From the NCBI RefSeq assembly GCF_003334315.1, contig NZ_QOWR01000065.1: a stretch of 24,206 bases of DNA; one strand, written 5' to 3'. The notes under the pieces were generated by a model that worked only from the letters and a program-made list of their open reading frames with translations, did no database searches and had not been told where the DNA came from. The stretch comes from Escherichia coli. GTDB lineage: Bacteria; Pseudomonadota; Gammaproteobacteria; Enterobacterales; Enterobacteriaceae. Positions 2,426-8,474 of this stretch are shown here, piece after piece. Made by a program: the position numbers and the translations under genes. Each line of letters begins with the position of its first letter. The stretch's first letter is position 1.

Positions 2426-3400
2426 TTAGTCCGCGACGTGCGGATTCACACAGTTCTTCTCAACCTTTCCTTGTAACGCATCAATCAAATTATCCACGGC
2501 ACAGGCGGCCATGCCATAACGCGTCTCATGGGTGGCAGATCCAATATGCGGTACTGCGACGACGTTGGCCATTGAGAGCAACGGCGAATCTACGGACAGT
2601 GGCTCTTGTTCGAAGACATCCAGCCCGGCAGCGTGAATTTCGCCTTTCTGCAATGCTGCGATCAGTGCATTTTCGTCAACCACCGGGCCACGTCCGGCAT
2701 TAATGAAAATGGCGGAGGATTTCATTTTGGCGAATTGTTCTGCGCCAAACAGATGATGCGTCTCATCAGTTAACGGCAGGATCAGGCAAACGAAATCTGA
2801 CTCTTGTAACAGAGTATCCAAATCGCAGTAGCGGGCGTTGAAGCGTTCTTCTGCTTCTTTATGGTGGCGGCGCGCGTTATAGAGGATGGGCATGTTGAAG
2901 CCAAAGTGCGCACGTTGTGCCAGCGCCATGCCGATCCGTCCCATCCCGACAATGCCCAGTGTTTTATGGTGAACGTCAGTGCCGTACCAGTCCGGGCCTA
3001 TGCTCGCGGTCCATTCGCCTGCTTTTACCCGTTCTGCTACCTCCACAACCCGACGAGCGGTAGACAACACCAGCGCCATCAGCGTATCGGCGACGGTTTC
3101 TGTTAATACGGTTGGCGTGTGCATCAGCAGAATTTTTCGGGCGGTAAGCGCATCGACATCAAAATTGTCATAGCCGACGGAGATCGTTGATGTGGCACGC
3201 AGTTTCGGCATTTTTTCCAGCAATGCGGCATTTACATTCTCGTTTGAACCCAGTAAACCTTCAGCTTCGGCAAAAATTGCTGCATTTTGTTCGACGGTTT
3301 GTGGGCTGAGGTTTGCCACCTGGTGAACGGTGAAATGCTCTTGCAGGCGTTGCAGTAAATCATCAGGTAAGGCTTTGTAGAGGATAACGGACGGCTTCAT
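2426..3400 (-). CDS. ghrB: Glyoxylate/hydroxypyruvate reductase B (2-ketogluconate reductase), D-isomer 2-hydroxyacid dehydrogenase family, 324 aa
   Basis: The NAD-binding motif [16 protein letters not shown] and catalytic region are recognisable. Start set at MKPSVILYK (3400) with GGAGAG upstream; the ORF track begins 4 codons earlier. Confidence 0.9.
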
Positions 3401-3467
3401 GCTTCTCTCCATTCACTGATAAGGCGATCACCTTAGCCTGAAATATGATGAAGGAAAACTGAAGAAT

Positions 3468-3493
3468 GCCAGGTGATTTCTGCATCACCTGGC
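3468..3493 (-). terminator. Terminator hairpin downstream of yiaD
   Basis: Perfect 10-bp inverted repeat GCCAGGTGAT-TTCTGC-ATCACCTGGC, followed on the minus strand by a T-rich tract (ATTCTTCAGTTTTCC). Confidence 0.6.
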
Positions 3494-3503
3494 ATGAAAG
3501 GGA

Positions 3504-4163
3504 TTACAGCGGGCTTAAGGTAATTTCTACACGGCGGTTTTGCGCCTTACCTTCTGCGGTGCTGTTGCTGGCGATTGGGTTAGCCGGGCCAAGGCCCTGA
3601 GTACGGATGCGGCTGGCGTCCACGCCCTGGGTGATCAACGCGCTGGCAACGGAATCCGCACGTTGCTGGGAGAGACGCATGTTCAGGTCGTGACCACCCG
3701 TGCTGTCGGTATAACCAATCACGTTAACCGCCGTTTTCGGATACTCTTTCAGTACCATTGCCACGCCGGTCAGGGTGTTAGCGCCCGCCGGTTTCAGGGT
3801 CGCGCTGCTGCTGTCGAAGGTCACATTGTTCGGCATATTGAGGATAATGTTATCCCCGCTGCGGGTTACGCTAACACCAGTGCCGCGCATTTTGTCGCGC
3901 AGCTTCGCTTCCTGCACATCCATGTAATAACCAACGCCGCCGCCCAGAGCTGCGCCTGCTGCTGCGCCAATCAGCGCGCCTTTACCGCGATCTTTCTTCG
4001 AAGAAGAGAGCGCACCAATACCCGCGCCCACGAGAGAGCCCAGACCTGCGCCGATAGCAGATTTACCTGCTTCGCGTTCGCCGGTGTAAGGGTTAGTTGT
4101 GCAGCCAGATACCGCCAGAGCGCCACTCACTACGGCGGCAATAAGATAAACACGTTTCTTCAT
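3504..4163 (-). CDS. yiaD: OmpA-family peptidoglycan-associated lipoprotein YiaD, 219 aa
   Basis: Signal peptide with lipobox (LAVSGC), a glycine-rich segment, and a C-terminal OmpA-like domain (NMRLSQQRADSV, NRRVEI). Confidence 0.88.
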   Translation of the reverse strand: MKKRVYLIAAVVSGALAVSGCTTNPYTGEREAGKSAIGAGLGSLVGAGIGALSSSKKDRGKGALIGAAAGAALGGGVGYYMDVQEAKLRDKMRGTGVSVTRSGDNIILNMPNNVTFDSSSATLKPAGANTLTGVAMVLKEYPKTAVNVIGYTDSTGGHDLNMRLSQQRADSVASALITQGVDASRIRTQGLGPANPIASNSTAEGKAQNRRVEITLSPL

Positions 4164-4315
4164 TGTTAATCCTTAATAACCTTTTTATTCTTTGCCACGG
4201 GTTCCGTGGCGGGAGATTATGCCGCGTGAACATGAAGATTATTCCTGGGAATACTCGGAAATTTGTAAGTAATATTTAACTGCTCAATACATCTAACCTT
4301 TCAGGAGTCTTCGGT

Positions 4316-6649
4316 TTGGCCAACTCATCCTCACGATATTCCGTTCTGACTGCCGCCCATTGGGGGCCCATGCTGGTTGAAACCGACGGCGAAACCGTGT
4401 TTAGCTCGCGTGGCGCGTTAGCCACAGGAATGGAAAACTCCTTGCAGAGCGCGGTTCGCGACCAGGTTCACAGCAATACGCGGGTACGATTTCCAATGGT
4501 GCGAAAAGGCTTTCTTGCGTCACCGGAAAACCCGCAAGGCATTCGTGGGCAGGATGAATTTGTTCGCGTGAGTTGGGATGAGGCGCTGGATCTTATTCAC
4601 CAACAACATAAACGCATTCGTGAGGCTTATGGTCCGGCATCGATTTTTGCTGGTTCCTACGGCTGGCGTTCAAACGGCGTGCTGCATAAGGCCTCGACAT
4701 TATTACAACGCTATATGGCGCTGGCAGGCGGTTATACCGGGCATCTGGGGGATTATTCGACCGGCGCGGCACAGGCGATCATGCCGTATGTCGTGGGTGG
4801 TAGTGAAGTTTATCAACAGCAGACCAGTTGGCCGCTGGTGCTGGAACATAGCGATGTCGTGGTGCTGTGGAGTGCTAACCCACTCAATACGCTGAAAATT
4901 GCGTGGAATGCATCCGATGAGCAGGGGCTTTCTTACTTTTCTGCACTGCGTGACAGCGGGAAAAAGCTGATCTGCATTGATCCAATGCGATCGGAAACCG
5001 TCGATTTCTTTGGCGATAAAATGGAGTGGGTGGCACCGCACATGGGCACCGATGTTGCGCTGATGCTGGGGATCGCCCATACGCTGGTGGAAAATGGTTG
5101 GCACGACGAAGCGTTTCTGGCGCGTTGCACCACAGGTTATGCCGTCTTCGCTTCTTATTTGCTGGGCGAGAGTGACGGAATAGCGAAAACCGCCGAATGG
5201 GCAGCAGAGATTTGTGGTGTTGGCGCAGCGAAAATCCGCGAGCTGGCGGCTATTTTCCACCAAAATACCACCATGCTGATGGCAGGCTGGGGAATGCAGC
5301 GCCAACAGTTTGGTGAGCAAAAACACTGGATGATCGTCACGCTGGCAGCAATGTTGGGGCAAATCGGCACACCCGGCGGCGGTTTTGGTCTTTCTTACCA
5401 TTTTGCCAATGGTGGTAACCCCACGCGGCGTTCTGCGGTGCTCTCTTCCATGCAGGGCAGCTTGCCGGGTGGCTGCGATGCGGTGGATAAAATCCCTGTT
5501 GCCCGCATTGTTGAAGCACTGGAAAACCCTGGTGGCGCATATCAACACAACGGTATGAACCGACATTTCCCGGATATTCGTTTTATCTGGTGGGCGGGTG
5601 GTGCCAACTTTACTCATCATCAGGATACCAATCGCCTGATCCGTGCCGGGCAAAAACCGGAGCTGGTGGTGATCTCTGAATGCTTCTGGACGGCGGCGGC
5701 AAAACACGCGGATATCGTTCTGCCTGCGACTACCTCTTTTGAGCGTAATGATCTCACCATGACCGGTGATTACAGTAATCAGCATCTGGTGCCGATGAAG
5801 CAAGTGGTGCCGCCACGCTATGAAGCGCGTAATGATTTTGATGTTTTTGCCGAGTTAAGTGAACGCTGGGAGAAGGGCGGTTATGCACGTTTTACGGAAG
5901 GAAAAAGTGAGCTGCAATGGCTGGAAACGTTTTATAACGTTGCCCGACAGCGCGGGGCAAGCCAGCAGGTTGAATTGCCGCCATTTGCTGAGTTCTGGCA
6001 AGCCAACCAGTTAATTGAGATGCCGGAAAACCCGGACAGCGAGCGGTTTATTCGCTTCGCTGATTTTTGCCGCGATCCGCTGGCGCATCCGTTAAAAACC
6101 GCCAGCGGCAAGATTGAAATCTTCTCACAGCGTATTGCCGATTACGGTTACCCGGATTGCCCTGGGCATCCAATGTGGCTGGAGCCGGACGAATGGCAGG
6201 GCAATGCCGAACCAGAACAGTTGCAGGTACTTTCTGCCCATCCGGCGCACCGCCTGCACAGCCAGCTGAATTACAGTTCTCTGCGCGAATTGTACGCGGT
6301 GGCAAATCGTGAGCCTGTCACCATTCATCCTGACGATGCCCAGGAGCGCGGCATACAAGATGGCGATACTGTTCGGTTGTGGAACGCACGCGGGCAAATT
6401 CTTGCCGGAGCGGTCATTAGCGAGGGAATTAAACCTGGCGTGATTTGCATTCACGAAGGGGCATGGCCGGATCTGGATTTAACCGCTGACGGTATTTGTA
6501 AAAACGGCGCAGTGAACGTGCTGACCAAAGATCTCCCCAGCTCGCGGCTGGGGAATGGCTGTGCGGGTAATACGGCGCTGGCATGGCTGGAAAAATACAA
6601 CGGTCCGGAACTGACACTTACAGCGTTTGAACCACCGGCCAGCTCATAA
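4316..6649 (+). CDS. bisC: Biotin sulfoxide reductase, molybdopterin oxidoreductase of the DMSO reductase family, 777 aa
   Basis: Long ORF with molybdopterin oxidoreductase features. The apparent start is TTG at 4316, with CAGGAG at 4302-4307. Length matches K-12 BisC. Confidence 0.9.
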
Positions 6650-7058
6650 TCCATGTGGGTAGTTGGGTTTCATCCTGCCATGCGCAATCGACAATGTGAA
6701 AACCCTGTGCCTGGTAAAAATTTATCGCCGGTTGATTTTTTTGATAAACCTCCAGCATCAGGTGGGGATGGCGCTGCTGCACATACTGCATCAGCGCCTT
6801 ACCAATACCGCGCCTGACGGCCTTCGGTGCGACAAACATCGCTGCCAGAAATCGGCCTTCCATAATGCTGACAAAACCGAGAAGCTTACCGTCTTCTTCC
6901 CAGACCCAGTTTTGCGCGTTGGCAAGATAGGCATCCCGCACCAGCGGAATGCAGTCACGCCAGTAATTCGCTTTTATAAAGGGATGCCCCCAGGTTGTAC
7001 TTTCCAGCCACAGTTCGAGGATCGCGGGGAGTTCTGAACGTTGCGCTTCCCGAATCAT
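6618..7058 (-). CDS. yiaC: GNAT-family N-acetyltransferase YiaC, 146 aa
   Basis: Full-length 146-aa ORF with an acetyl-CoA-binding motif (RRGIGKALM). Its 3' end overlaps the 3' end of bisC by 32 bp in convergent orientation. Confidence 0.85.
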
Positions 7059-7618
7059 GGTTTATTTCCCGGATAGCAACAGCAGCCAACCACATGATCA
7101 TTCACCAGCCCACATGCCTGCATAAAGGAGTAACAGATTGTGGTGCCGACAAACTTAAAACCACGTTTTTTCAGTGCCTTAGATAGGGCGTCGGAGGCGG
7201 ACGTAGATGTGGGAATTTCGCTCAACGTTGTGGCTTGTGTCACCTGTGGCTGATGATTTACAAACGACCAGACAAAGTCGACAAACGGTTCGCCGTTCTG
7301 TTCCATTTGCAGGTACGCCCGCGCATTACCAATAATTGCCTGAATTTTCCCTCGATGGCGGATAATCCCGGCGTCCTGTACCAGTCTTTCGACATCCTCT
7401 TCCTGCATTGCTGCGACCTTCACCGGATCGAACTGATGAAAGCAGGCGCGATAGTTTTCGCGTTTTTTGAGGACGGTGATCCACGATAATCCAGCCTGCT
7501 GCCCTTCAAGGCAGATCATTTCGAACAGTTTTTTACTGTCAGTTTCAGGCACGCCCCACTCATTATCATGGTAGGCAATATAAAGCGGGTCCTGACTCAC
7601 CCAGCCGCAACGTTCCAT
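7055..7618 (-). CDS. tag: DNA-3-methyladenine glycosylase I, 187 aa
   Basis: Start set at MERCGWVSQDPLYIAYHDNEWG to give the 187-aa product; the ORF-track start at 7855 is an upstream extension. The tag stop overlaps the yiaC start in an ATGA junction (7055-7058), suggesting translational coupling. Confidence 0.9.
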   Translation of the reverse strand: MERCGWVSQDPLYIAYHDNEWGVPETDSKKLFEMICLEGQQAGLSWITVLKKRENYRACFHQFDPVKVAAMQEEDVERLVQDAGIIRHRGKIQAIIGNARAYLQMEQNGEPFVDFVWSFVNHQPQVTQATTLSEIPTSTSASDALSKALKKRGFKFVGTTICYSFMQACGLVNDHVVGCCCYPGNKP

Positions 7619-7775
7619 ACTTTCCCTCGCTATGTACCCGATCGTAAAAATTTCAGCCGCTTTTCTTGACGCATCGGTGAAAAAGTCAATATTTAATACA
7701 GGGCTACTATGCCCGATATCCTTCATACAATGACAATAATATTGCCGAATTCGGCTCTTCCCTGGAGTCGTGTTA

Positions 7776-8474
7776 ATGATCATAAAAAAAAGCGGTGGTC
7801 GCTGGCAGCTAAGCCTGCTGGCGAGCGTGGTAATCAGTGCCTTTTTTCTCAACACAGCTTACGCCTGGCAACAAGAATATATCGTTGATACGCAACCCGG
7901 ACATTCCACAGAGCGTTACACCTGGGATAGTGATCATCAACCTGATTACAACGATATTTTGTCGCAACGTATTCAAAGTAGCCAAAGGGCGCTGGGACTG
8001 GAAGTCAATCTGGCAGAAGAAACCCCTGTGGATGTGACCAGCAGTATGAGTATGGGCTGGAATTTTCCTTTATATGAACAGGTTACAACCGGCCCGGTCG
8101 CGGCATTACATTACGATGGCACAACCACCTCGATGTATAACGAGTTTGGCGACAGTACTACCACGCTGACCGATCCGTTATGGCATGCCAGCGTGAGTAC
8201 CTTAGGCTGGCGTGTTGACTCCCGGCTTGGCGATCTCCGACCCTGGGCGCAAATCAGCTATAACCAGCAATTTGGCGAGAATATCTGGAAGGCGCAATCA
8301 GGCCTGAGCCGGATGACGGCGACAAACCAGAACGGCAACTGGCTGGATGTCACCGTAGGCGCTGATATGTTGCTCAATCAAAATATTGCCGCCTATGCCG
8401 CGCTAACTCAGGCAGAAAATACCACTAATAATAGCGACTATCTGTATACGATGGGGGTTAGCGCCAGATTTTAA
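7776..8474 (+). CDS. yhjY: Conserved outer-membrane beta-barrel (autotransporter-like) protein YhjY, 232 aa
   Basis: GGAG at 7764-7767 precedes the ATG at 7776. N-terminal signal peptide ending AYA and a C-terminal aromatic residue (ARF). Position matches K-12. Confidence 0.8.
   Translation: MIIKKSGGRWQLSLLASVVISAFFLNTAYAWQQEYIVDTQPGHSTERYTWDSDHQPDYNDILSQRIQSSQRALGLEVNLAEETPVDVTSSMSMGWNFPLYEQVTTGPVAALHYDGTTTSMYNEFGDSTTTLTDPLWHASVSTLGWRVDSRLGDLRPWAQISYNQQFGENIWKAQSGLSRMTATNQNGNWLDVTVGADMLLNQNIAAYAALTQAENTTNNSDYLYTMGVSARF

Follow-up and report, generated by a model that had tools for sequence, protein, structure and literature searches.

Convergent genes that overlap at their 3′ ends form a common class in bacteria: the Escherichia coli reference genome holds 663 overlapping adjacent pairs, 75 of them convergent (PMC4161906), and among convergent overlaps longer than 4 nt one relative frame, 'phase 1', is favoured (bioRxiv 10.1101/2025.11.07.687268). 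Classical excludons also bring opposing transcripts together, using long untranslated regions or antisense RNAs that span the neighbouring gene and give opposing expression. Rho can end transcription that continues antisense into a convergent gene, and about half of the mapped E. coli Rho regions lie antisense to genes. Within operons, the stop of one gene may overlap the start of the next in an ATGA junction.

The 3′ ends of bisC and yiaC compare most closely with the first of these systems. They belong to two real genes that share 32 nt in the favoured phase, and the pair, conserved from genome to genome, is among the ~75 of its kind in E. coli; its overlap exceeds the very common 4-nt type, but nothing essential differs. 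The locus also has features of an excludon (overlapping convergent transcripts, a duplex cut by RNase III and an entry in a published excludome), yet the overlap lies in the coding 3′ ends, the extent of antisense transcription is limited by Rho and the duplex is rare. We consider it probable (roughly 80%) that the two genes form a real but ordinary tail-to-tail coding overlap, in which RNA pairing is a by-product and not a regulatory device. The overlap is already annotated and catalogued, as an ordinary member of a common class.

The analysed stretch of 24,206 nt (the window) maps to E. coli K-12 MG1655 at 100% identity, and NC_000913.3 was used as the coordinate reference. The genes and their junctions are as follows.

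4316..6649, plus strand: bisC coding sequence, biotin/methionine sulfoxide reductase, 777 amino acids (open reading frame listing and RefSeq)
6618..7058, minus strand: yiaC coding sequence, GNAT lysine N-acetyltransferase, 146 amino acids (open reading frame listing and RefSeq)
7055..7618, minus strand: tag coding sequence, 3-methyladenine DNA glycosylase I, upstream member of the tag-yiaC pair (RefSeq)
6618..6649, both strands: convergent overlap of the bisC and yiaC coding sequences, 32 nt, both TAA stops included
7055..7058, minus strand: ATGA junction of the tag stop and yiaC start (from the sequence)

In RefSeq, yiaC occupies 3713652-3714092 (+) and bisC 3714061-3716394 (−) of NC_000913.3. 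Together with the open reading frame listing, these coordinates bear out the original prediction that the two genes share their last 32 nt, with no intergenic region. The sequence pairs codon positions 1-1, 2-3 and 3-2 and the overlap length is 2 mod 3, which corresponds to 'phase 1'. At the other end of bisC, the start codon is TTG (4316-4318), on whose coordinate the listing and RefSeq agree. The overlap region is present at ≥95% identity in 5,422 of 5,426 complete E. coli genomes. Stops are sparse in the three antisense frames of bisC: each has 13-27 in ~777 codons, the gaps between them have a median of 18-36 codons, and 70-77% of these gaps span at least 10 codons. The three possible frames give a convergent overlap of 6, 32 or 199 nt, so that a length of 32 nt is unremarkable once the genes abut. 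What exceeds chance is the conservation of the overlap across genera, not its length.

This conservation was observed in a set comprising the window and 12 other loci (13 aligned), which represent at least seven further named genera or species, together with a metagenome contig. A search of genome contigs with YiaC returned five Escherichia-genus loci only, and the wider taxa were reached through protein matches and the contigs that encode them. All 12 other loci have an overlap of either 32 or 38 nt. The 32-nt form occurs in the five other Escherichia-genus loci, E. albertii and E. whittamii among them, and also in Salmonella, Citrobacter amalonaticus, Enterobacter ludwigii and Pseudescherichia. 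In Kosakonia, Lelliottia and the metagenome contig, TCA stands in place of the yiaC stop, the frame is two codons longer, giving an overlap of 38 nt.

A more distant locus (L016), with a YiaC that is 44% identical, was compared over positions 3001-4972 with window positions 3504-7058. Here tag and yiaC are adjacent through a 4-nt GTGA junction (3001-3004), and downstream of yiaC come a 550-nt spacer and then, on the same strand, a gene for a 2-hydroxyacid dehydrogenase; neither bisC nor yiaD is present. Because this locus has the tag-yiaC pair without bisC, the pair appears, from this single outgroup, to be older than its adjacency to bisC. The dehydrogenase belongs to the family of E. coli ghrB, and in E. 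coli bisC and yiaD sit between yiaC and ghrB, which points to an insertion of bisC-yiaD at this place, or else to its loss in the outgroup. A candidate outgroup for BisC itself (P0151) was rejected, being a TorZ-type paralogue that adjoins a pentahaem cytochrome gene.

Both reading frames are real protein-coding genes, and the ends of the two proteins map onto the overlap as follows.

6611..6637, plus strand: codons of the conserved BisC C-terminal element L766-P774 (LTLTAFEPP), facing the YiaC tail and stop
6638..6649, plus strand: variable BisC tail A775-S777 and stop codon, facing the conserved YiaC residues I137-W140
6639..6662, minus strand: codons of the last YiaC β-strand, residues 133-140, with M138 and W140 nearly invariant in the family
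6618..6638, minus strand: non-conserved coil tail of YiaC, P141-L146, and stop codon (alignment and model)

Residues 7-775 of the 777 in BisC match solved DMSO/TMAO reductases (E = 1e-278), the alignments ending at residue 774-775, and a run of 10 residues near this end matches 'VTVTVFDTPK', residues 769-778 of the 780-residue chain 1EU1. Since BisC-family proteins, distant ones too, nearly always end three to four residues past the motif TAF.PP, the position of the bisC stop is, judging from these alignments, ancestral for the enzyme family; the last three residues are variable (A[S/N][S/A/P]). YiaC is a GNAT protein for which a search of 1.84 billion representative proteins returned 2,713 homologues. 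For 58 of 70 single-domain homologues the match to YiaC ends at residue 140-141, and the median tail beyond the W140 equivalent is 6 residues long (interquartile range 4-10), as against 6 in YiaC itself. M138 and W140 are nearly invariant, and the family alignment holds no conserved motif after W140. An AlphaFold2 model built from the homologue alignment is confident overall (mean pLDDT 96.9), with a final predicted strand at 133-140 and residues 141-146 as coil (pLDDT ~69). Two ideas about this tail were set aside: that YiaC is unusually extended into bisC, given that its tail length equals the family median, and that a 'WQDQ' likeness between the outgroup and enteric YiaC tails is more than chance, there being no family motif past W140.

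The conserved cores of the two proteins abut without overlapping, with BisC ending at 6637 (P774) and YiaC at 6639 (W140). Positions 6618-6638 hold BisC core facing the YiaC tail and stop, and 6639-6649 hold YiaC core facing the BisC tail and stop. As the cores do not overlap, the arrangement should cost the proteins almost nothing; with tails that look dispensable in alignment and model, the overlap would come at little cost to either.

Within the overlap, silent sites are under constraint in both genes. Across the 13 loci, third positions of yiaC were variable at 2 of 10 sites within the overlap versus 117 of 128 outside it (Fisher p = 1e-6), and those of bisC at 6 of 10 versus 84 of 88 (p = 0.003); with related, non-independent sequences and ~10 sites per class, these p-values are indicative only. 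Most variation in the overlap falls on third positions of bisC, which are second positions of yiaC, and this accounts for the variable YiaC tail (P/Q/R, V/A, V/D/G and L/P/R) that faces a near-fixed BisC TAF[D/E]PP. As any earlier stop would cost BisC or YiaC a conserved terminal strand, a point mutation should not be able to resolve the overlap. Persistence of the overlap could thus be explained without invoking a function, on the reasoning that a simple earlier stop would truncate a conserved strand.

Coordinates, conservation, dual constraint and core boundaries are direct observations of the present analysis; for the RNA, the double-stranded product, the Rho region and the excludon listing are taken from publications and were placed on the window.

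6630..6652, both strands: p19-captured 21-bp RNase III product of bisC and yiaC transcripts (PMC7373196 Table S3)
6533..6555, minus strand: putative terminator-like hairpin within bisC, UCCCCAGC-CGCGA-GCUGGGGA, then GAUCUUUGGU, 63 nt 3′ of the yiaC stop
6366, minus strand: reported Rho termination peak for yiaC-strand transcription, antisense to bisC; coarse position (PMC7815308 Supplementary file 2)

The claim that the two genes converge with no intergenic terminator needs amending. There is indeed no intergenic region, but Rho terminates yiaC-strand transcription ~250 nt into antisense bisC, and 6555..6533 holds a weak terminator-like hairpin. In Adams et al. (PMC7815308, Supplementary file 2), the Rho region has position 3714344; it is on the yiaC strand and antisense to bisC, with 90/23 reads upstream/downstream without bicyclomycin and 60/112 with it (score 7.3, p = 5.5e-14). 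This site corresponds to window position 6366 (−), ~250 nt past the yiaC stop, and is coarse because 800-nt windows were used to compute it. Between 6617 and 6368, C outnumbers G in every 50-nt bin of the minus-strand RNA (C/G 1.17-1.89), after which the ratio falls to 0.87, as expected for a Rho loading tract. With bicyclomycin-sensitive read-through inside bisC after a C-rich tract of ~250 nt, the yiaC strand is a typical case of Rho termination antisense to a convergent gene, and no difference is apparent. The Term-seq data of the same study contain no 3′ ends for yiaC, bisC or tag, which low expression may explain. For bisC, scanning and folding revealed no convincing terminator, and the published datasets covered gave no mRNA 3′ end; an Rfam scan of 5500-8000 at E ≤ 1 returned no match.

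Published data also support, at a low level, the earlier idea that antisense 3′ ends lead to RNase III cutting. In the p19 capture data of PMC7373196 (Table S3, sheet 'E 21-bp', 1,225 duplexes), a duplex labelled 'bisC yiaC' consists of AUUAUGAGCUGGCCGGUGGUU (184 reads, 2.16 RPM) paired with CCACCGGCCAGCUCAUAAUCC (90 reads, 1.06 RPM). Its placement at 6630-6652, through mapping to NC_000913.3, means that bisC mRNA reaches at least 3 nt past its own stop, and the duplex indicates that in vivo the bisC and yiaC RNAs form a double strand that RNase III cuts. It stands near the bottom of the table, in which other duplexes reach ~1000 RPM. ExcludonFinder (PMC12288877), which uses overlapping coverage as its criterion, counts yiaC-bisC as one of 165 convergent excludons present in half or more of 58 MG1655 transcriptomes. 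Such a call is almost automatic where coding sequences overlap, as overlapping coverage follows trivially if both full coding sequences are transcribed.

Several other readings of the locus were weighed. An annotation artefact, in which one gene truly ends or starts elsewhere, deserves next to no credence: long annotated overlaps in prokaryotes are frequently erroneous, but errors dominate only above 60 nt (PMC2478687), well beyond the length found here, and a convergent overlap hinges on stop codons alone. Both stops are the first in frame for their gene, so that no alternative end can abolish the overlap. The BisC and YiaC C-termini moreover fit their families in position and length, and the arrangement recurs in the 12 other loci; we regard this reading as effectively refuted already. 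Somewhat more room is left for the hairpin at 6555..6533 as an intrinsic terminator or 3′-protecting stem-loop of tag-yiaC, which would fix the antisense overlap at ~90-120 nt, but this too is unlikely. The hairpin has 8-9 bp with 6 G-C pairs and a U-containing tail, passes a lax promoter/terminator scan and is conserved across the 13 loci (92% of cells paired, with one compensatory C-G to G-C change, against at most 63% in slid controls). Its U-tract (GAUCUUUGGU) is however poor, folding downstream of the stops is not significant (z-scores −0.38 on the yiaC side, which includes the hairpin region, and −0.63), and covariation barely exceeds that of shuffles (13/500). Since the arms code for LPS and LGN of BisC, coding constraint can explain their conservation; hairpin and T-run are both lost in Pseudescherichia. 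The lack of a Term-seq end for yiaC or bisC and the bicyclomycin sensitivity of read-through (PMC7815308) also speak against a terminator here.

A functional excludon is less probable again. Convergent transcription and RNase III would then make bisC and tag-yiaC mutually antagonistic, and the overlap would be conserved for that reason. The listing among the 165 MG1655 excludons, an RNase III product exactly within the overlap, yiaC-strand transcription that runs ~250 nt into antisense bisC and conservation across genera all agree with this. The duplex, though, reaches only 2.2/1.1 RPM (184/90 reads) where others approach ~1000, the listing criterion is nearly automatic for overlapping coding sequences, Rho restricts the antisense extent, and the literature found on this pair contains no report of opposing expression of bisC and tag-yiaC. 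The two reading frames fully account for both the conservation and the lowered silent-site variation, although a regulatory RNA function could also yield long retention of the overlap and reduced silent variation in bisC. Least expected among the functional readings is a coding-sequence excludon under selection of its own, with RNase III-cut, Rho-tuned pairing that balances BisC against Tag-YiaC; if this were true, the balance would lie between repair of oxidised methionine/biotin by BisC and the DNA-repair/protein-acylation pair Tag-YiaC.

For the ordinary coding overlap that we favour, the following course of events is proposed. In a common ancestor of Escherichia, Salmonella, Citrobacter, Enterobacter and Kosakonia, bisC would have become the immediate downstream neighbour of tag-yiaC, and the overlap would have been locked in since then. 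The YiaC strand ends at W140, leaving a six-residue unstructured tail that is read antisense to BisC TAFEPP, and the variable last three residues and stop of BisC face the conserved I-M-S-W of YiaC. Transcription of tag-yiaC passes the yiaC stop into antisense bisC and is ended by Rho ~250 nt downstream, and bisC and yiaC RNAs pair over at least the overlap, with occasional RNase III cuts. This pairing is most likely a low-level by-product with no regulatory function. The locus may then serve as a clean textbook case in which, for two unrelated genes, the disposable tail of each lies over the essential last strand of the other at near-zero cost, and it would illustrate why overlaps of this kind can outlast the divergence of genera with no function of their own. 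It also calls for caution, as regulation does not follow from a conserved overlap, an excludon listing or a rare RNase III product taken on its own.

The ATGA junction between tag and yiaC, likewise predicted, was confirmed in the sequence: the tag stop TGA (7057..7055) overlaps the yiaC ATG (7058..7056), as in other ATGA operon junctions. Four of the six Escherichia-genus sequences have this form (the window and L002-L004, which include E. albertii). It differs elsewhere, with a 1-nt tag/yiaC overlap at position 4001 in two Escherichia species (E. whittamii, L005, and Escherichia sp. E1V33, L006), an overlap of 20-23 nt (~4001-4023) in Salmonella, Citrobacter, Enterobacter, Lelliottia, Kosakonia and Pseudescherichia (L007-L013), and GTGA in the outgroup. 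Tag has 192-193 amino acids in the genera with 20-23-nt overlaps versus 187 in E. coli. By this comparison of sequences, the junction is remodelled among enteric bacteria. Translational coupling of yiaC to tag through ATGA is something that we only infer from the shape of the junction.

Further signals were noted around the locus. A second p19-captured RNase III duplex lies at ~5520-5543 (U00096.2 3713189-3713212; 261 and 170 reads), inside bisC and ~1.1 kb from its 3′ end, and implies antisense RNA well beyond the Rho region, from either read-through or an internal antisense promoter. An inverted repeat inside yiaC (6765-6803; 17-nt arms, 82% complementary, 5-nt loop, without a U-tract) lies on the path of any bisC read-through. 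On the minus strand, a conserved run (GCGCCGTTTTT) at 6501-6514 lies ~20 nt beyond the hairpin tail; its opposite strand encodes BisC K-N-G-A, and its T5 run is kept in 12 of the 13 loci. This run might add to termination or pausing on the yiaC strand, or might simply reflect coding constraint. The Term-seq data of Adams et al. (PMC7815308) place the primary 3′ end of yiaD at 3717247 (window ~3463, −), 41 nt past the yiaD stop and after a clear hairpin. They also contain a strong eptB-internal 3′ end at 3710464 (window ~10246, +), just inside the eptB start, in keeping with the premature termination by Rho that the study describes for eptB.
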